Source: a virus. Taken from it: DNA of 64,000 nucleotides. Below the pieces are notes generated by a model that did not search any database, had not been told where the DNA came from, and saw nothing but the letters and a program-made list of their open reading frames with translations. The DNA is taken from positions 64,001-128,000 of the IMG/VR virus record IMGVR_UViG_3300032241_002679. The stretch is one strand, 5' to 3'. Position 1 is the first letter of the stretch. Every line of letters starts with the position of its first letter. Below, in pieces: positions 31,522-63,127 of this stretch. A program made the position numbers and the translations under genes.

Positions 31522-34500
31522 TTATCTAGCGCCACTAAATAACCACATATATTGTCCAGTTGGATCTTGCATATTTTTTGCTACAATTGGACTAAAATTT
31601 GGTCTTTCTGTCTGTTTTTTATATCTATTATTATTTGATACAAAACCATGTCCCTTCATTCTATCATTTATAATTTCATTAGGACTATTTGGACTAATCC
31701 AACTGCTTAACATTGCTTTTGTCTGTTTTTCAAGTCTTTCAAGATTTTTAAAAGAATGTTCCAATACCCACAAACACATTGCCATTGCAAAAATTAAATC
31801 GTCATGATAACCATCCATATGGTCTGGCCTTCCATTTTTAAATACAAACGTTTTCATTTCTGAAATCATTCTAATTGATTTAATTTTTACTAAATTATTT
31901 CTGACTTTTTCTTCGAAGTTTGATATCATCTGTAGACGTATGCTACTTACTTGAAGGCCTGGTACTTTATTATCTTTTTTAAATGTTTCCATTTGTTTTT
32001 GCTTACTTGATAATATTTTACCATTTGGAGTATCGTAATGAAGTCTCTTGTAATCAAATTCCAATAATTTTAAAACAGTAGAGACACCCATACCACCAGT
32101 AATATCCACAATTGTATAGGCCTTATATAATTCACCATATTCCTCAACTAATTGAGCCAATAAGTCTGGCTGTATTTTACCTTGATATTCCATAACTTGT
32201 TCCATGGTTGTGAAGTCCAATATTACTATTGTTGATGAATCCTCACCATCTCCACGACTTACGTCAACCCCCATGATGTATTGATGCCCCTCTTCTGGCT
32301 TCTTCCAAATCCATATTTCATTCTCACTACCATCAATAAAAAGAGGGTCCTCGACATTAAATTTTTTCTGTTCTTCAATTATTTCTTCACTAATGACATT
32401 ACCACCACTACCAATAAATGATACATCCAATTCCTGTGCGATCATTTTAGCATCATTATTCATACCACGACACATCTCCTCATACCATGAAGATGTTGGT
32501 TTATACCCATTTAATATTTTATTATTATATGACTCAAATGTAAATTCAAATTCCTCTATTATTTCATCACCCTTAATCCATTTTAAATCTTTATTATATC
32601 TCAGATCCTCATACCATTTCATTTCAATTATATTGAAATTATTTTTTTTAGCTTTAGACTGAGCATATGTCTCATAATATAACTTATCCATACCATTTGG
32701 TGTGGATATAAGGGTAGCTTTTCCTCCAGTATTATGGCTTATAATACCATTACTAATAAAAGAATTGGTTTCTGGCACATGTAAATCATAGGTATAGTTT
32801 TCAGATTTTGAAATTTCAATAATTTCATCAACATAAAAATTTTTATTAATTTCTACTTTTCTATTTATATTATCTAATATTGGATGTTTTATTTTCTCAT
32901 TAAGCTTATCAATTGCGTTATATGTTAAACGACTGTATTTTGAATTCCAAAATCTTTCTAAAAATCTAACTTTATATTTTGGAATTTTATTATCTGATAG
33001 TACAGTTTCTATCTCTCTTTTTTTAACAAAAACAAATCGTTTATTTTTAATTTTATTAATTAAAAATTTTTTCTTTTCTTGTTTTCTCTCCAATCTAAAA
33101 CCGATCTCATCATAAAATTTTATTGCGTTATTTGAATATATGTATAAATTATAAATTTCTGTTATATGTTCTTTATTTAATATAATTGAAGACTGGCTAG
33201 TTTTTTGATTTTCTTTTTTTATTCTAGAAATAATACCAAAATTTAACAATAATATTTGTAGTTTTTTAGCTAAATCATGCGATGTAGTTGAATACTTTAC
33301 TTCTTTTACTGTTGAGCAACCATCCCCATCAAATAATCCCTGTAAAAATGATTTTATAACGTTCTTACTTGATTTCAAAATACAACTTGGTATTGTTTTA
33401 TCTCTAGCATTATGTTTTTTAAACCCATAGTATTCTAGCCATGCAACTAATTTTTTTGAGCTTAAATAATAATGATATTCTCTAGACTTTTTAAACCCAC
33501 GACCTAATTTTGAGCCATCGTTAATTAGAAAATCTTGTATCTTTTTATCACCATTAGTAATTACAATTCCACCTTTCTGAAAATTACCCTCAGCAACAAA
33601 TAATCCTAATAAATAAGCAAAATCTAAATTATTATTTAAATTCGTTGGAATATTAATTTCCTTTTCGTTTATAGTTGGTTTATAATCAAAATCATATAAA
33701 AAATCGCCAAAATAGTTTTGATTATATTGTACTATTGGCATATCGCCAACCTTAAGTTCATTAAATCTAACCCATTTATTAATTTCATTATCACTAATGT
33801 ATATGGGATGTTTCCAACTACCTTCTAATTCAAGACCTAATTTTGTTTTAATTTTATAGGTTTCCCCGTATTCCGAAACAAATGTCTGGGTAACATCAGT
33901 AAGCTTTCCATACATATCACATACTTTATGCGGAGTTTCTAAAGTTGTAAAACCAATTTGTTTTTTTTCTTTAACCAATTCATCTAATTCTATTAACCCC
34001 TCCTTTGTTAAGATTAATGATTCTTTAGTTAAACAACCTAAAGCAGTCAGAGCAGCACCAAATACAATAGCCCCGTTATCAATATAGGCGGCTTCATCCA
34101 TTACTAGATATGTCGGTGTAAAACCACGAAGAGCATCCTTTGATGTAGCAACGGCTTTAATTCTACTACCATTTGGTAATCTAATTTCTTTTTTAGAATC
34201 AGTGATAAAAATTGTTTTTTCCTCATTACGACTATTGCCATAATATTCTGGCCCCCATACCCAACGTGGAAGTTGTGATACAAAATCTTTAATTTTAGCT
34301 AAAAATTCAAAAGCTAGTTCTTGTTTATTGGCAATAATTAGAACAGCTTCAGGATTTTCATCATCTGCAAATGCCGCTTTTATAGCGAGATATGCAGCGG
34401 TTGTTGTAGATACACCAGCTTGACGTGGTTTTGTAATTAAATTAAAACGTTCTTTTTCGTATGAAAAAATAATTTCTTTTTGTCTTGGAAATAGTTTAAA

Positions 34501-34614
34501 AGGTACAAATCCTTCTTGTGTTTTGTCAAATGTCTCTAAATAAGTCTCAATTGCATAAATTGGACTGGATAAACATTTGGCGTATTCTCTTATTATTTCC
34601 TCTCTAGTGAGCAT
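31522..34614 (-). CDS. gp17: terminase large subunit (intein-containing)
   Basis: KPRQAGVST, VMDEAA, ISTPNG, GVDVSRG, HDDLIFA. Confidence 0.95.
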   Translation of the reverse strand: MLTREEIIREYAKCLSSPIYAIETYLETFDKTQEGFVPFKLFPRQKEIIFSYEKERFNLITKPRQAGVSTTTAAYLAIKAAFADDENPEAVLIIANKQELAFEFLAKIKDFVSQLPRWVWGPEYYGNSRNEEKTIFITDSKKEIRLPNGSRIKAVATSKDALRGFTPTYLVMDEAAYIDNGAIVFGAALTALGCLTKESLILTKEGLIELDELVKEKKQIGFTTLETPHKVCDMYGKLTDVTQTFVSEYGETYKIKTKLGLELEGSWKHPIYISDNEINKWVRFNELKVGDMPIVQYNQNYFGDFLYDFDYKPTINEKEINIPTNLNNNLDFAYLLGLFVAEGNFQKGGIVITNGDKKIQDFLINDGSKLGRGFKKSREYHYYLSSKKLVAWLEYYGFKKHNARDKTIPSCILKSSKNVIKSFLQGLFDGDGCSTVKEVKYSTTSHDLAKKLQILLLNFGIISRIKKENQKTSQSSIILNKEHITEIYNLYIYSNNAIKFYDEIGFRLERKQEKKKFLINKIKNKRFVFVKKREIETVLSDNKIPKYKVRFLERFWNSKYSRLTYNAIDKLNEKIKHPILDNINRKVEINKNFYVDEIIEISKSENYTYDLHVPETNSFISNGIISHNTGGKATLISTPNGMDKLYYETYAQSKAKKNNFNIIEMKWYEDLRYNKDLKWIKGDEIIEEFEFTFESYNNKILNGYKPTSSWYEEMCRGMNNDAKMIAQELDVSFIGSGGNVISEEIIEEQKKFNVEDPLFIDGSENEIWIWKKPEEGHQYIMGVDVSRGDGEDSSTIVILDFTTMEQVMEYQGKIQPDLLAQLVEEYGELYKAYTIVDITGGMGVSTVLKLLEFDYKRLHYDTPNGKILSSKQKQMETFKKDNKVPGLQVSSIRLQMISNFEEKVRNNLVKIKSIRMISEMKTFVFKNGRPDHMDGYHDDLIFAMAMCLWVLEHSFKNLERLEKQTKAMLSSWISPNSPNEIINDRMKGHGFVSNNNRYKKQTERPNFSPIVAKNMQDPTGQYMWLFSGAR
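32731..34035 (-). mobile_element. intein with LAGLIDADG endonuclease (435 aa) in terminase
   Basis: ALG|CLTKE...LLGLFVAEG...FLQGLFDGDG...SHN|T. Confidence 0.95.
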
Positions 34615-56775: not shown

Positions 56776-59700
56776 ATGAATAGAGAAATCCTTCCAAAAG
56801 TAAAGTTGATTATTAATCAAGCTAGTAAGGAAGCTAAATCATTTGATGATATTAAAATAAAACCTGAACATATAGTTTTATCTATGATATCTCATGATGA
56901 TAATGAATGTATTAAAATATTAAAATCACTCAAAGTTGATATGGGTGATTTACATGATAAAATATCTGATTATTTAAGAAAAAATGATTTAACACCAAGA
57001 ATTTCGCAGTATGGTAGAAATAAACTACCTTTGTCCGATGAAACAAAAATAATATTTAAAAATGTTGATTCTGAGTGTGAAAAATTAAATGATGATGCTA
57101 TTGATACTCATCATTTAATGCTGAGCATTCTTAAAATAAAAACACCAATTACAAAAATCTTATTTGATGCTGGTGTTAATTACAGGAGCTTTAAAAAAAT
57201 AATTATGGACAACAGAAATGACATGCCAAAAGAAAACAATGTAAAAATGGAAAATGATTCAATGGATGATGATTTTCAAGAGCCTGAACGTTTTAAAAAG
57301 GTTAAAAAGAAAACTGATTCTAAAACGCCTATTCTTGATAATTTTTGTCGAGATATTAGTAAGGCTGTTGAAAAAGGCGCAATTGATCCAGTTGTAGGTA
57401 GGATCAAAGAAATAAAACGAATAAGCCAAATTCTATCCAGAAGGAAAAAAAATAATCCAGTATTGATTGGCGAACCTGGTGTCGGAAAGACAGCCATTGT
57501 TGAGGGATTGGCACAATTAATTAAAGATGGTAATGCACCACGTACTATAGCTAATAAAAAAGTATATAGTCTTGATTTAGCTAGTATTGTTGCTGGCACT
57601 AAATATCGTGGACAATTTGAAGAAAGAATGAAAGCTGTTTTGGAAGAGTGTAAAGCGAATACAGATATTATTTTATTCATTGATGAATTGCATACTATTA
57701 TTGGTGCTGGTAATGCCTCTGGTTCACTTGATGCAAGCAATATTTTTAAACCAGCTCTTGCACGTGGAGAAATACAAATCATTGGCGCAACTACACTTGA
57801 TGAATATCGTGAACATATTGAAAAGGATGGCGCACTTACAAGAAGATTTCAACAAGTATTAGTTGAGGAACCTTCTCTTGAAGAGACTAAAATAATTCTC
57901 ACTAATATTAAAGAAAAATATGAAAAACATCATAAAGTAGTATATACTGATGAGGCTATTGATGAATGCGTGAAATTATCACATCGCTATATAATGGAAC
58001 GCTCAATGCCAGATAAAGCTATTGATGTACTTGATGAAGCTGGAGCAGCTACAAATATAACTGTAGAAAAACCACAAATTATTAAGACATTAGAACAGAA
58101 AAAAATAGCACTCAATAATAAGAAAAAAGACGTAGTGCTTCAACAGAATTATGAAGAAGCTGCTAAGATACGTGATGAAGAAAAAAAGATAGATAATCAA
58201 CTCTTAAAGCATAATAAAGAATGGGCTGATAGCCTAGATAAAAAAATCACTACGGTTGGTGTGGAACAAATATCAGAAGTAGTCAGTATGATGACTGGTA
58301 TACCTCTTACTAAAATTTCTACACAAGAAAGCAAACGCCTATTGAACCTTGATAAAGAACTGATGGGTAAAGTAATTGGACAGGACGATGCAGTTTCAAA
58401 AGTAGTTAAAGCTATTAAAAGAAATAGAGTCGGTATTAAAGATAAAAATAAGCCCATTGGAAGCTTTATTTTTCTTGGCCCAACAGGTGTCGGTAAATGT
58501 TTTTTATCTGATACTAAGATAATTATAAGAAATAAAAAAACTAAATCAATCGAAGAAATTGATATTAATGAATTAAAAGATAGATTTGATGAGATACAAA
58601 AAAGAATTAAAAAAACTAATAATGTCTTATTGTTTGACAAGCATGAATTAGAATCATTAAAGAAAATTACCAAAACAACCAAAATAAGCGATTACGAGGT
58701 TTTAACTGACGATGGTTTTGTTGATATTGAAGCATTGCATGAAACAATACCATATGAGGTTTACCTTCTTAGGTTATCTGACGGAAAGGAACTTAAATGC
58801 GCTGATAATCATATTGTATTTTTAAATGATTATCAAGAAATATTTGTGAAAGATTTGCAAATTGGTGATAACGTTATCGTGGAATCAAACGAAACCACAG
58901 GATTGGCTAGTGTGCTCGAAGTAAAAAATTTGGGCTATGAAGAAGCAATGTATGATTTGGAATTAGCAGAAGATTCAAACAGACGATATTATACCAATGG
59001 AATATTGTCACATAATACGTATTTGGCCAAATTATTGGCAGAATTTGTCTTTGGAGATGTAGATGCTTTGGTTAAAATTGATATGAGTGAATATATGGAA
59101 AAACATTCTGTATCAAGACTAATTGGTTCTCCGCCAGGTTACGTTGGTTATGATCAAGGTGGCCAATTGACAGAAAAAGTACGTAGAAAACCACATTGTG
59201 TTATTCTTTTTGATGAAATTGAAAAGGCACATGAAGATGTATTCAATCTCTTATTACAATTATTGGATGAAGGTCAGTTGACAGATGGACTTGGAAGAAA
59301 AGTTAATTTTAAAAATTCATTAATTATACTTACGTCAAATTTAGGTGTTAAAGAAATTAATACTTTTGGTACATCAATAGGTTTCGAGACTACAGCTACC
59401 GTTGCTAGTGAAGAAGCTAGAGCTAGAGGAATAATTGAAAAAACACTCAAGAAAAAATTCAGACCAGAATTCCTAAATCGTATAGATGAGAGTATCATTT
59501 TCAATGAATTAAAAGAAGATGATATACATAAAATCATATACAAAGAATTGGAAAAGTTGGAGAACAGACTTAATGAAGTTCATTTTAAACTTAAAATTAA
59601 TAAAGCAGCCGTTGAATTCTTAGCGAAAGAGGGTTATAGTAAAGAATATGGTGCTAGACCATTGGGTAGAGCAATCCAGAAATATATCGAAGACCCAGTC

Positions 59701-59817
59701 GCTGACGAAATTCTGAGCGGAAGTATTACTGAGGGTGAAGTAATAAAAATTAATTTCGATAAGAATAAAAATGAAGTTATAATCAAACCAGATAGGAATA
59801 ATAAATCTGAAGACTAA
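56776..59817 (+). CDS. clpC: ClpC/ClpB-type AAA+ chaperone with mini-intein
   Basis: Clp-N repeats, GEPGVGKT, UVR-like middle domain, GPTGVGK|T, GSPPGYVG, GARPL. Confidence 0.9.
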   Translation: MNREILPKVKLIINQASKEAKSFDDIKIKPEHIVLSMISHDDNECIKILKSLKVDMGDLHDKISDYLRKNDLTPRISQYGRNKLPLSDETKIIFKNVDSECEKLNDDAIDTHHLMLSILKIKTPITKILFDAGVNYRSFKKIIMDNRNDMPKENNVKMENDSMDDDFQEPERFKKVKKKTDSKTPILDNFCRDISKAVEKGAIDPVVGRIKEIKRISQILSRRKKNNPVLIGEPGVGKTAIVEGLAQLIKDGNAPRTIANKKVYSLDLASIVAGTKYRGQFEERMKAVLEECKANTDIILFIDELHTIIGAGNASGSLDASNIFKPALARGEIQIIGATTLDEYREHIEKDGALTRRFQQVLVEEPSLEETKIILTNIKEKYEKHHKVVYTDEAIDECVKLSHRYIMERSMPDKAIDVLDEAGAATNITVEKPQIIKTLEQKKIALNNKKKDVVLQQNYEEAAKIRDEEKKIDNQLLKHNKEWADSLDKKITTVGVEQISEVVSMMTGIPLTKISTQESKRLLNLDKELMGKVIGQDDAVSKVVKAIKRNRVGIKDKNKPIGSFIFLGPTGVGKCFLSDTKIIIRNKKTKSIEEIDINELKDRFDEIQKRIKKTNNVLLFDKHELESLKKITKTTKISDYEVLTDDGFVDIEALHETIPYEVYLLRLSDGKELKCADNHIVFLNDYQEIFVKDLQIGDNVIVESNETTGLASVLEVKNLGYEEAMYDLELAEDSNRRYYTNGILSHNTYLAKLLAEFVFGDVDALVKIDMSEYMEKHSVSRLIGSPPGYVGYDQGGQLTEKVRRKPHCVILFDEIEKAHEDVFNLLLQLLDEGQLTDGLGRKVNFKNSLIILTSNLGVKEINTFGTSIGFETTATVASEEARARGIIEKTLKKKFRPEFLNRIDESIIFNELKEDDIHKIIYKELEKLENRLNEVHFKLKINKAAVEFLAKEGYSKEYGARPLGRAIQKYIEDPVADEILSGSITEGEVIKINFDKNKNEVIIKPDRNNKSED
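58498..59016 (+). mobile_element. mini-intein (173 aa) in the second Walker A motif of ClpC
   Basis: GK|CFLSD...CADNH...YDL...SHN|T; no endonuclease. Confidence 0.92.
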
Positions 59818-59821
59818 TATT

Positions 59822-59845
59822 AAAACCCCACTTTTGTGGGGTTTT
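59822..59845 (+). terminator. intrinsic terminator
   Basis: aaaaccccac-tttt-gtggggtttt. Confidence 0.85.
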
Positions 59846-59860
59846 CTTATATTTATAAGC

Positions 59861-60262
59861 ATGAAGAAATTTATAAAAAGTTTACTCAATGAAGGTCTCT
59901 TTCATAGAAATTCAAAAGAACAATTGAAGCTAATGGAGGAATTTATTAACTTTACTTGTAAAGAATTAAACATTGATCCAGTACCAGTAAATCTACAATT
60001 TAATCATGATGGACTAGTTACAACTGCAGCATATGGGGATAAAAAAGTATATGTATATGCTAAAGATCGTGCTATAGTAGATATTATGAGAAGTATAGCA
60101 CATGAACTTACCCACTTAAAACAAGACCTAGAGGGTAGACTCAATCCTAAAAATCATGAAAAAAATAATGCCGCTGGTTCAGATATTGAGAACGAAGCAA
60201 ATTATAGGGCTGGGGAAATAATAAGAAAATTTGGAAAAATACATCCTGAAATTTATCCATGA
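59861..60262 (+). CDS. zincin metallopeptidase-like protein with LxE leader
   Basis: ATG 59861 after TATTTAT; HELTH...ENEA. Confidence 0.75.
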   Translation: MKKFIKSLLNEGLFHRNSKEQLKLMEEFINFTCKELNIDPVPVNLQFNHDGLVTTAAYGDKKVYVYAKDRAIVDIMRSIAHELTHLKQDLEGRLNPKNHEKNNAAGSDIENEANYRAGEIIRKFGKIHPEIYP

Positions 60263-60576
60263 TAAATAAAAATGAAATAGAAATTGTTAGAAGAGGCATC
60301 TCAAATATGGGGCCAGCCTATACACAAATAGTTAAACAATCCAGTGATAAAAAAATAATACAAATTGGAAAAGATGTGGTAGACCAATTAGCTGATCAAG
60401 CTACCTATGAACCCACAAAAAATGCTATTGGACAAGAAGCAACTAATATTCTAATTAGTTGGTACCCAGAGTTTTTTAAGGAAAAAAGAGAATACTATAA
60501 TAATAATAAATTAAGCGATATTTCAGAGAATAAAAAAACTATTAAAAAATTTTTAAGGGCTTTTCTTCTTAAGTAA
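60259..60576 (+). CDS. hypothetical protein
   Basis: 105 aa ORF. Confidence 0.55.
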   Translation: MINKNEIEIVRRGISNMGPAYTQIVKQSSDKKIIQIGKDVVDQLADQATYEPTKNAIGQEATNILISWYPEFFKEKREYYNNNKLSDISENKKTIKKFLRAFLLK

Positions 60577-60835
60577 TTATGCCAATATATTCATGACTAA
60601 AACATATTCTTTTATTATCTGCATAATGATCATGATATATGTTTTTATGTGTAATGTCCTTTCTCAATTTTTTATTCTTGCTGGTCGGCTTCCATAACGG
60701 AGAATGTTCACGATAATATCCCATTCGTGGGTGGGAAGTTCTGGAGAAATATCTAAGACCCTGATCAATATGCATCTGAGCAATTGCATCTGAAAATCTA
60801 ACACCAATACCCATACCTTGAAAATCTGGAAGAAC
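60569..60835 (-). pseudogene. displaced duplicate 3' half of the GNAT gene
   Basis: VLPDFQGMGIG...; 59/84 aa identical (manual count) to the C-terminus of 61736-62158. Confidence 0.8.
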
Positions 60836-60874
60836 TTTCCATTAAAACAAGATATTTATTAATAAATAAAATTT

Positions 60875-61777
60875 ATGAAAACTAAAAATTTTATTGAGAA
60901 AGCTAAATTAAAACACGGAAATAAATATGACTATTCGTTAATTAAATACATTAATAATGAAACAGAAGTTGAAATAATATGTCCAATTCATGGTATTTTT
61001 AAACAAAAACCAAAAAAACATATTAATAGAGGTCAAAATTGCCCCAAATGTACAGGACATTTTATAGATAAAAGTTTTTTTATAGAAAAAGCTAATAAAA
61101 TTCATAATAATTTTTATGATTATTCTTTGGTTGAATACAAAGATAGCACAACTAAAATTAAAATTATATGTCCTATTCATGGAATATTTGAACAAACTCC
61201 AAATGCTCATTTATCTAATAAGAATTGTTATAAATGTACAGGTACACCTAAGAAAACAACAGAAACATTTATTAACGAAGCAAATAATATACATAAAAAT
61301 AAGTATGACTATTCATTAACTAATTATCAAAATAATAGTTTTAAAGTTTCTATTATTTGTAAAATACATGGAATTTTTAAACAAACACCAGCAGCACACT
61401 TAAGGGGTCAAGGATGTCCTATTTGTCGAGAGTCAAAGGGTGAAATTTTAATAAGAAATTTTTTAGAAAATAATCTAATAAAATTTAAACCTCAACATAG
61501 ATTTAAAGATTGTAAACATAAACTTCCATTACCATTTGACTTTTATTTACCGACTTTAAATCTATGTATTGAATTTCATGGTCACCAACACTACTTATCA
61601 TCACATAACTTTGGTGCGGTTAAAAATGAATTTGAATTAATACAAATAAGAGATAAAATTAAAATAGAATATTGTATTAAAAATAATATTTCATTATTAA
61701 TAATTCCTTATTATGAGAACGCATCAATTATTTTATCAAATTTCTTTAGTACCTATAAATTCAAAACTACCACATAA
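60875..61777 (+). mobile_element. free-standing endonuclease (CPIHG zinc repeats plus PD-(D/E)xK-like domain)
   Basis: Three KYDYS...IIC.IHG.F.Q.P..H..CxxC repeats; PFDFYLP...IEFHG.QH...RDKIK. Confidence 0.85.
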
Positions 61778-62212
61778 ACGTTTATTATCGGTATAATGAT
61801 TATTAAATACTTTTTCATGTTTTATGTCAGTACGAACTTTTTTATGTTTTGATGTTGGTTTCCATAGTGGTGAGTTCTCTCTATAATTAATTAATCTGGG
61901 ATGGGCTGTTCTAGAAAAGAATCTATAACCCTGATTAATATGAATTTGTGCTATTGCGTCTGAAAATCTAGGACCAATACCCATACCTTGAAAATCTGGA
62001 AGAATGCAAATCCTATGACCACGCCATGCATTTTTCATATTTCCATTTGGCAATGCTAAACTAGCACCAAATGCCACTATTCTATTATTCCATAAACCAA
62101 TATAACATCTCGATGCTTTATTCAAATCAGAACTTAAATAATGATGACCTTTAAACATGTCCCAGATATGATGGCTTGTTCGAAATATTTCGATTTGTAT
62201 TTTTGGCCTGAC
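61736..62212 (-). CDS. GNAT acetyltransferase (Mom-like), probably frameshift-fused to the upstream ATPase
   Basis: HHYL, RICILPDFQGMGIG; frame is open to the T9 run. Confidence 0.8.
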   Translation of the reverse strand, partial: VRPKIQIEIFRTSHHIWDMFKGHHYLSSDLNKASRCYIGLWNNRIVAFGASLALPNGNMKNAWRGHRICILPDFQGMGIGPRFSDAIAQIHINQGYRFFSRTAHPRLINYRENSPLWKPTSKHKKVRTDIKHEKVFNNHYTDNKRLCGSFEFIGTKEI

Positions 62213-62817
62213 AAAAAAAAACCATTAAAAAATTCACCACTATCTGTGTCAATTACCCAATCTGGCTGAATCCAATCCAATATATCACGATGACATGTTG
62301 ATAATACTATATTATTAATGTCATTATTTCTAATATATCTCGAAAGACTTACACTGGCCGCTTTAGCTACATCACGATCCACTACACTGGTGAATTCATC
62401 TATAATTGCATTTGAATTTAATTTACGAGATAAATCAGCCCTAAACTTCTCACCATTTGATAAGACATGATATGGTTTATACCACGAAGGTATACTATTC
62501 AATCCTACCGCCCCTAGCTTATTTATAGCCTCATCAGGGCTCTCAAAATGTGAAATGATAGATTTATTGTCATGCCATATAGGAACGGTCTCTTGGCCAA
62601 AATTCTTTATCATAGTACTCTTACCAGTACCACTACCTCCAACTATTACGCCTATTTTAAATTCAGGAGGAATATTAGGAACACTCCATGGATAAAATTT
62701 AGAAGTGCCATCAAAAATACAGTCAAAAGCTTTTTCACTTGCTAATATAAATTCATCCCTATCAACTATACTAATTAAAGGCTTAGACTCCCTTGATAAT
62801 TTTATTATTTCATTCAT
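62134..62817 (-). CDS. ABC-type ATPase
   Basis: GGSGTGKS, LSNGE, IIDEF, STCH. Confidence 0.9.
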   Translation of the reverse strand: MNEIIKLSRESKPLISIVDRDEFILASEKAFDCIFDGTSKFYPWSVPNIPPEFKIGVIVGGSGTGKSTMIKNFGQETVPIWHDNKSIISHFESPDEAINKLGAVGLNSIPSWYKPYHVLSNGEKFRADLSRKLNSNAIIDEFTSVVDRDVAKAASVSLSRYIRNNDINNIVLSTCHRDILDWIQPDWVIDTDSGEFFNGFFLSGQKYKSKYFEQAIISGTCLKVIII

Positions 62818-62923
62818 AAATGAAATATATAAAAAAATTAATAGGTGTAAAGTCTATAAAATAGAATAGCTAGAGGATAAATAAATACCCCCTAGCATAC
62901 TATTTTATTAATTAAAATTTAAA

Positions 62924-63127
62924 TTATTTGCTAGCTAACTTGCTGATTTTTTCTTCCAATTTGTTTAATTTGGATTCCAAAATAGCTGTTTTGTCGCCTT
63001 TTTTAGCCTGTTCAGCAAGCCATTCTTTCTTTTTAACTTGAATTGCTTCGCTTACAATGTTATCAATTAAATCAACCAAATCATTTTCAGAAATTCTAAC
63101 GGTTTTTTTTGCGTTTGACATATGCAT
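62924..63127 (-). CDS. small late coiled-coil protein
   Basis: KTVRISENDLVDLI; late motif at 63159. Confidence 0.65.
   Translation of the reverse strand: MHMSNAKKTVRISENDLVDLIDNIVSEAIQVKKKEWLAEQAKKGDKTAILESKLNKLEEKISKLASK

Follow-up and report, generated by a model that had tools for sequence, protein, structure and literature searches.

Introns and inteins are the textbook routes by which homing endonuclease genes enter essential coding sequence. A third route, in which the endonuclease gene brings along a spare end of the gene it invades, has so far been documented in fungal mitochondria. For Allomyces macrogynus atp6, a mobile endonuclease open reading frame (ORF) with a foreign C-terminus is on record (Paquin, Laforest & Lang 1994, as cited in PMC3630166); in Glomus, such mobile ORFs (mORFs) with foreign C-terminal copies are present in atp6, atp9, cox2, and nad3, with the native C-terminus located downstream (PMC3630166), and in Endoconidiophora, C-terminal duplications of atp6 and cob lie beside endonuclease ORFs (PMC6279837). 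In phages, the seg and mob genes spread by intronless homing (PMC2988022), the T4 mobA gene together with the gene 60 bypass insert has been termed a "mobile DNA cassette" (as cited in bioRxiv 10.1101/2022.08.31.505936), and the EDxHD signature was defined for a family of Vsr-like homing endonucleases whose homing behaviour is established (PMC3239194). Here, we analyze a 64,000-nt stretch of viral DNA (the window; bases 64001–128000 of the 141.8-kb IMG/VR virus record IMGVR_UViG_3300032241_002679, which is estimated to be 40% complete), in which a gene for an ABC-type ATPase joined to a GNAT acetyltransferase has very probably been invaded by a 1.17-kb homing cassette composed of the last 89 codons of a foreign GNAT gene and an antisense gene for an EDxHD nuclease. 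The resident last 88 codons would have been displaced downstream, now representing an unexpressed orphan, with the foreign copy continuing the resident reading frame. The features of the locus are the following (window coordinates; labels beginning with L denote related loci on other viral contigs):

60569–60835, minus strand: orphan native GNAT 3' half, 88 codons plus stop, open, without start context, 92% identical to the orphans of L004/5
60803–60834: first copy of an exact 32-nt repeat, found by string search
60835–60874, plus strand: 5' flank of the nuclease gene with a 16-nt palindrome, TATTTATTAATAAATA (60853–60868), that is unique in the window; its left edge is the orphan junction
60875–61777, plus strand: free-standing homing endonuclease gene, 300 amino acids, between the repeat copies (phrog_559, E = 4e-76)
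61736–61777: tail-to-tail overlap of 42 nt between the nuclease ORF and the imported GNAT end, from ORF coordinates; a similar overlap is present in L003
61736–62004, minus strand: in-frame imported GNAT 3' half, from ILPDFQGMGIGP to the stop, completing the GNAT frame; shares 85% identity with the L003 half that is linked to the nuclease
61973–62004: second copy of the 32-nt repeat (motif A codons), found by string search
62005–62212, minus strand: N-terminal GNAT part, i.e., the resident gene body up to the insertion point, delimited by comparison with relatives
62134–62817, minus strand: ABC-type P-loop ATPase part of the target gene in the 0 frame, 227 amino acids (phrog_11143 positions 41–194, E = 1e-60)
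62213–62221, minus strand: U9 run (GG UUU UUU UUU G), beyond which the GNAT part goes on in the -1 frame; a T9 run with -1 offset is found in ~40 related contigs

An earlier interpretation of the bare letters (the sequence-only reading) had started from the 32-nt direct repeat encoding LPDFQGMGIG and had placed one GNAT 3' half and an antisense endonuclease between its copies. The string indeed occurs exactly twice in the window, with 0 occurrences expected by chance, both copies encode [IV]LPDFQGMGIG (GNAT motif A) on the minus strand, and the ORF coordinates confirm the arrangement between them. The 32 nt form the head of a 253-nt direct repeat (60582–60834 versus 61752–62004) that is 74% identical, gapless, and spaced by 1170 nt. 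The second, stop-free 3' half, for which about 70% gapless identity had been noted, is the open 88-codon orphan; it shares 69% protein identity with the in-frame half, again without gaps, and a stop codon sits three codons upstream of it. Several unrelated relatives (L008, L011, L046, L049) share a 27-nt core of the repeat without any difference, so the identity over 32 nt mostly represents extreme nucleotide conservation and is not necessarily the scar of a recent recombination event. Taken alone, this identity would thus be weak evidence, such conservation being what is expected of a homing-target motif.

The question of which half is native can be addressed by a before/after pair. L016, which lacks the nuclease, and L052, which carries it, have near-identical ATPase–GNAT N-parts (branch lengths of 0.019 and 0.006), and the nucleotide sequence of L052 corresponds to that of L016 with 1166 nt added. 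The orphan of L052 matches the in-frame half of L016 with ~95% nucleotide identity from codon ILPD through the stop, and the two loci remain collinear for 3 kb further downstream. The in-frame half of L052 diverges abruptly from the motif on, with many nucleotide changes in the motif codons (LPEFQGLGLGV versus LPDFQGMGIGP). Thus, what was inserted is the in-frame half with the nuclease gene, and what was displaced, now the orphan, is the native end. In the window, the N-part of the gene is nearest to L004/5 and L008 in the tree; the orphan has its nearest counterparts in the L004/5 orphans (92%) and in the native half of nuclease-free L020 (85%), and the in-frame half pairs with the half of L003 that is linked to the same nuclease class (85%), the N-part of L003 residing in another clade. 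Among the 30 nearest relatives, most halves are closer to the window orphan, the exceptions being L003 g0, L013, and L009. The in-frame half is therefore of foreign and the orphan of native origin, and the locus belongs to the C-terminus-replacing mobile ORFs, in which a nuclease brings an in-frame foreign C-terminus and the native end is displaced. The opposite polarity, according to which the nuclease and the half downstream of it were inserted behind the stop codon of an intact native gene, making the orphan the foreign part, would accommodate the invariable fusion of the nuclease 5' flank to the orphan, at one fixed codon. We consider it very unlikely, since the novel part of L052 is the in-frame half rather than the orphan with its 3 kb of collinear sequence, since the window orphan clusters with native halves from the relatives that are nearest to the window by N-part, and since it is the in-frame half that the nuclease ORF overlaps by 42 nt.

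A scan of viral contigs for the ATPase–GNAT gene returned 80 loci, most of them uninterrupted. A related nuclease gene is carried by 12 of ~55 close relatives at two fixed junction codons, the rest being uninterrupted, so that the presence/absence polymorphism at a fixed site that characterizes homing genes is evident; all 12 nuclease genes are located directly behind the in-frame gene end and always in antisense orientation. Class 1, with a three-module nuclease, comprises the window, L003, and L052. Here, the duplication begins at codon [IV]LPD, the nuclease 5' flank is joined to this same codon in all three contigs, and the element measures 1166–1172 nt. Class 2, with a two-module nuclease (L003, L004/5, L011/12, L021, L051), has its site 33 codons downstream of the class 1 site; the duplication begins at HPRM/G (the slash marking the junction), with a single fixed junction (…AAAAG/CATCCACGTATG GG). 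In L003, both classes are stacked in the order gene–nuclease 1–orphan 1–nuclease 2–orphan 2, from which it follows that class 2 invaded first and class 1 later. That three contigs share the junction codons, and that the L003 locus is nested, further backs the proposal of the sequence-only reading that an element invaded the conserved motif and repaired the gene with a diverged half. That reading had also named a duplication lacking the nuclease as an observation that would speak against it, and none was found among the relatives. Outside this gene, 45 other loci of the nuclease family (L083–L127) were examined for duplications of flanking targets, and no gene-end duplication was seen; tblastx matches that had looked like such duplications were traced to paralogous nucleases in tandem (L084) or to remnants of nuclease tails (L092). 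The cassette habit is thus so far confined to this GNAT gene.

In the mechanism we propose, the nuclease would cut nuclease-free alleles at or next to the RTV/VLPDFQG codons, and, to judge from the invariant right junction, the end of the break in empty alleles may be placed at the junction codon or immediately upstream of it. The break would then be repaired from a co-infecting cassette-bearing genome, the gene body serving as left homology arm and the donor orphan, by pairing with the native 3' half of the recipient, as right arm. As both arms reside inside the gene, homing would be independent of the variable region downstream of it, and as the spare gene end restores the frame, neither intron nor intein would be needed. 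Such portable homology arms are suggested to enable a free-standing nuclease to spread across phages with differing flanking genes. As to self-protection, the in-frame copies of class 2 read ATG ATT TGG TAT AGA at the junction, compared with ATG GGN TAY TAY CGN in the natives; the class 1 copies of the window and L003 have P for V after GIG and, as the last two codons before the insertion point, IC for the usual TV, a replacement common to these two loci only; and the class 1 copy of L052 presents a recoded motif at the junction. With the in-frame copy differing at the junction and the upstream half-site missing from the orphan, a full target is predicted for neither of the resident copies. 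The sequence-only reading, largely borne out as a whole, had considered the imported half possibly cleavage-resistant; its sequence does differ at the junction, and its resistance would be a prediction. At later stages, orphans would decay by deletion and nucleases may be lost, with the foreign half staying fixed.

Orphans are intact in seven loci. In L007, only about the last 14 orphan codons remain (…NKRVCFSHEYIG), and in L009 only ~16 nt (CACCCATGAATGGGTG) beside the nuclease flank; L006, the sister of L009, has no nuclease and has kept a foreign-type half. This series reads as a succession of cassette gain, orphan decay, and nuclease loss that would leave the imported half fixed. In orphan–orphan and orphan–native pairs, non-synonymous divergence (dN) ranges from 0.05 to 0.30 and synonymous divergence (dS) is saturated in nearly all pairs, as among functional copies; with saturated synonymous sites, a dN well below dS does not separate young pseudogenes from constrained ones. 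The dN/dS comparison, which had been suggested as a check of the orphan, thus gave the low dN of functional copies together with saturated dS, and it would fit young orphans that are remade at each homing event rather than selected. These data bear directly on the possibility of a selected cassette switch, in which the orphan is a C-terminus kept in reserve and GNAT specificity is toggled by recombination at the 32-nt repeat, with deletion of the nuclease. The geometry for this is given, as repeat recombination would remove the imported half together with the nuclease and put the orphan back in frame, and the intactness of most orphans along with their dN well below dS would be in line with it. 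Yet low dN/dS is to be expected of young orphans, the synonymous sites are saturated, the orphans of L007 and L009 are partly or almost wholly deleted, and the predicted product (IC codons followed by a native half, no nuclease) occurs in none of the relatives, which makes a selected switch improbable in our view. Of the earlier suggestion of two alternative GNAT C-termini exchanged by recombination, the two halves and the repeat geometry accordingly stand; any biological use of both ends would be conjectural, the orphans of two loci being in decay, and no relative exhibits the recombination product.

That the 3' half was duplicated in tandem in situ, diverged in place and received the nuclease between its copies later, is even less plausible. 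The direct-repeat geometry by itself fits, and the halves of L052 are statistically inseparable. For the window, however, the two halves fall into different starred clades separated by a starred branch (95), and constraining them as sisters costs 44.5 log-likelihood units and is rejected by the approximately unbiased (AU) test (p = 0.010). Each half is closer to other genomes (85% and 92%) than to its partner (69%), the comparison of L016 with L052 reveals the insertion of new sequence rather than a duplication, and a duplicated half is nowhere seen in a relative devoid of the nuclease. Separate clades, AU test, and identities taken together reject both in-situ duplication and reverse polarity for the window; with the L016/L052 pair, the incongruent trees and the AU test also carry the invasion-and-repair claim of the sequence-only reading. 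An assembly chimera of two co-occurring strains, conceivable for a contig of metagenome origin and raised as a caveat in that reading, has a close to negligible probability, as distinct IMG/VR contigs, each with its own metagenome of origin or another than the window's (L003, L052; L004, L005, L011, L012, L021, L051), show the same architecture and junction codons, the identical nuclease protein is found on a second contig of 324,674 nt, and at 74% identity the copies have diverged too far for strain mixing to collapse or join them.

Several points weigh against the cassette invasion as we have depicted it. The halves of L052 are not separated by the AU test (p = 0.44), which is probably due to patchy gene conversion between them. 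Foreign-type halves are also present in the nuclease-free loci L006, L008, L010, L013, L014/15, L016, and L017. The earlier proposal to determine which half matches nuclease-free relatives therefore does not lead to a simple answer; the assignment relies on tree congruence in short alignments of 88 columns. The position of the cut and the putative immunity of both resident copies are predictions, and as the 32-nt motif is the same in both window copies, recognition wholly inside it would make both of them targets. Finally, the origin of the first duplication would require an illegitimate join.

Beyond the individual invasion, it is possible, although we would not call it probable, that the 3' third of the gene evolves mainly by successive selfish sweeps in an arms race between nucleases and immunity. 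If so, every imported half would act as an immunity allele with a longer life than its nuclease; halves of the GIGP type and the I type are still present in the nuclease-free loci L016, L006, L008, and L010. Later nuclease variants would be expected to retarget such immunity alleles. The nuclease of L052 is 62% identical, and the imported half of this locus carries the heavily recoded motif; under the arms-race assumption, L052 would represent a GIGP-type genome that was invaded again by the 62%-identical nuclease, and the stacked orphans of L003 would be a readable fossil record of invasion order.

The nuclease ORF lies antisense to the ATPase–GNAT gene, the overlap of the two involving the last 14 codons of each. 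Its PHROG family, phrog_559, is annotated as "HNH endonuclease", a loose label, and its relatives in databases number >8000, which are very-short-patch-repair endonucleases according to some sources. The N-terminus is made up of three 63-residue DUF723/DUF4379 treble-clef zinc-ribbon modules. NCBIfam yielded no family match, and a search of the PDB by sequence remained empty, structural matches coming from fold comparison alone. In an AlphaFold model built with 40 homologues (pLDDT 90.9), residues 185–299 superimpose on E. coli Vsr (1cw0; Z 10.7, root-mean-square deviation 2.9 Å, 106 residues aligned) and on the catalytic domain of I-Bth0305I (3r3p; Z 10.3, 92/97 residues); the top four Foldseek matches are Vsr and I-Bth0305I structures. 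Of 40 homologues in the alignment, 38 retain E190, D222, H239, and D260, as does every one of the 12 nucleases at GNAT loci. Based on the modelled Vsr-like fold and these conserved residues, the protein fits the Vsr-like EDxHD homing endonuclease family, with residues 185–299 as predicted catalytic domain. The NUMOD/helix-turn-helix (HTH) modules found N-terminally in I-Bth0305I were sought as well; zinc-ribbon modules take their place, a difference in architecture within the same catalytic family. An intein-borne nuclease is excluded by the antisense orientation of its gene, and no group I or group II intron match was obtained at E <= 1 in 59800–63000.

The flank upstream of the nuclease gene is homologous to the nuclease 5' flanks of L003 and L052, which are fused to the same codon. 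In both nuclease lineages, a conserved AT-rich element, ATATTTAT[TA]AATAAA, is positioned 6–10 nt ahead of the start codon (flanks of the window, L003, L004, L009, L011, L021, L051, and L052), forming a perfect 16-nt palindrome in the window; no Shine-Dalgarno sequence is present between this element and the start codon in the flanks of the window and the seven loci. A role as promoter, translation signal, or operator is conceivable. The sequence-only reading had attributed a late motif to the nuclease gene: a conserved AT-rich palindrome before the start is indeed there, and a promoter role finds no support in the distribution of TAATAAATA and TATAAATA, which are frequent in the AT-rich window and mostly not upstream of gene starts; sigma-70 and terminator scans gave no information on it either way. 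The exact nuclease protein of the window is recorded on two contigs, the longer being the one of 324,674 nt, and a further recorded protein is 66% identical. Outside the window, the phage record encodes a second nuclease of the same family (G000:C1:21403-22134, minus strand), whose open frame of 493 residues is 50–57% identical over the repeat modules, and at L084:1599-3394 two paralogous nucleases of this family are arranged in tandem, head to tail, beside a structural gene.

In the target gene, the GNAT ORF (61736–62158, minus strand, 140 residues) succeeds the ATPase ORF in the -1 frame. As phrog_11143 (357 positions) spans both ORFs, ATPase and GNAT are normally one protein; the ATPase part also has weak matches to ABC_tran and ABC-F. 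At the joint, compared between the window and loci L003–L055, the -1 shift is conserved. L013 and L042/43 differ in having a T10 run, their two parts being fused in frame (HGFFFVRP), the canonical heptamer A_AAT_TTT takes the position of the U9 run in L014/15/18, and in distant relatives ATPase and GNAT are fused in frame and the run is absent; the GNAT-frame peptide FFFVRPxIxIxIYRT upstream of the Met is conserved. Judged from this pattern, the U9 joint would imply programmed ribosomal frameshifting or transcriptional slippage, with a 227-residue ATPase and a fusion of ~365 residues as predicted products. The GNAT domain was assigned by Pfam (Acetyltransf_1, PF00583, E = 3e-5, residues 12–80 of the 140-residue ORF), with no family match in NCBIfam, and the motif A consensus (Q/R-x-x-G-x-G/A) is represented by QGMGIG at residues 57–62 of the same ORF. 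L015 (2256–4025) and likewise L014 have an intein of ~360 residues with LAGLIDADG motifs in the P-loop of the ATPase–GNAT gene (GASG/C…THN/SGKST). Together with the two nuclease lineages, three selfish elements thus target, across the relatives, three of the most conserved motifs of the gene, and they use two solutions, the intein and the spare gene end. With its nucleases, intein, and -1 frameshift, the ATPase–GNAT gene may serve as a compact model of how selfish elements pick the most conserved motifs.

The source is a large tailed phage, as genes for a large terminase, a head protease, and a major head protein of HK97 type are found in the window; the genome is AT-rich (GC content of the window ~28%) and roughly 330–370 kb in size, related contigs reaching up to 360–370 kb. 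Next to the GNAT locus, most of the 80 related loci have retained the gene at 59861–60262. The adjoining ORF of 105 residues that converges on the orphan (60259–60576, plus strand) has no counterpart in any of them, so the region downstream of the GNAT gene is a variable spot. Two further genes of the window appear to be interrupted. A ClpA/B-like ATPase of 1013 residues (56776–59817, plus strand) has an intein-like insert behind its second P-loop (…GPTGVGK/CFLSD…ILSHN/TYLAK). The large terminase ORF (31522–34614, minus strand, 1030 residues) has terminase matches at residues 5–331 and 729–951, separated by helicase-like or unknown matches, and this interruption suggests that it carries an inserted element.

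The occurrence of a spare gene end in a phage, combined with an EDxHD enzyme, would mean that the strategy is a general one, and the before/after, nested, and decayed states deposited in public metagenomes offer a tractable natural series for its study. The 3' ends of phage genes can be mosaics of horizontally swept immunity alleles, a point of relevance to phage phylogenetics and to gene calling, in which hybrid genes and fragments left as orphans turn up. The cassette design could also inspire marker-free insertion strategies for phage engineering. Our literature searches brought up no phage in which a nuclease gene carries a replacement gene end, which is weak evidence given their incomplete coverage of subscription journals.

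Among free-standing or intron-borne phage nucleases, several share individual traits with the window element. I-Bth0305I of Bacillus phage 0305phi8-36 and the T4-like Hef-type enzymes have the Vsr-like fold with its E, D, H, and D residues and are likewise phage-borne with modular N-terminal DNA-binding repeats (PMC3239194). However, the gene of I-Bth0305I is located within a recA group I intron and the enzyme has NUMOD/HTH modules (PMC3239194), whereas the window nuclease does without an intron, has three DUF723/zinc-ribbon modules, and relies on a spare 3' half for gene continuity. In Aeh1, a free-standing nuclease gene, mobE, is found inside the conserved phage gene nrdA (as cited in PMC2988022), in this respect resembling our locus; according to that citing source, the gene is split there into two polypeptides, whereas the GNAT gene is kept whole by replacement. 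T4 mobA/gene 60 and the seg/mob genes, as far as portrayed in the sources citing them, share with the window the principle that a free-standing phage nuclease moves with adjacent protective sequence of the target gene. In these accounts, protection is provided by a 50-nt untranslated insert or by flanking polymorphisms, with no part of a gene described as duplicated; the cassette of the window, in contrast, carries a whole replacement gene end and leaves the old end behind.

By analogy, the closest precedent is provided by the fungal mitochondrial mORFs, and the phage cassette would represent a known kind of mechanism in a new setting. In both cases, a protein-coding gene houses an endonuclease ORF with neither intron nor intein involved, the gene is kept whole by a foreign C-terminal copy in frame, the displaced native C-terminus lies downstream and is closer to element-free relatives, and the phylogenies of the core and the C-terminal part are incongruent. 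They differ in host (an organelle there, a bacteriophage here), in nuclease family (LAGLIDADG or GIY-YIG versus an EDxHD/Vsr-like enzyme), and in orientation, as the fungal ORF shares the phase of the gene and the phage nuclease is antisense with a tail-to-tail overlap, departing from the same-orientation arrangement of the mORFs. The phage gene differs, moreover, in harbouring two nuclease lineages at two sites, with orphans stacked upon one another where both have invaded.

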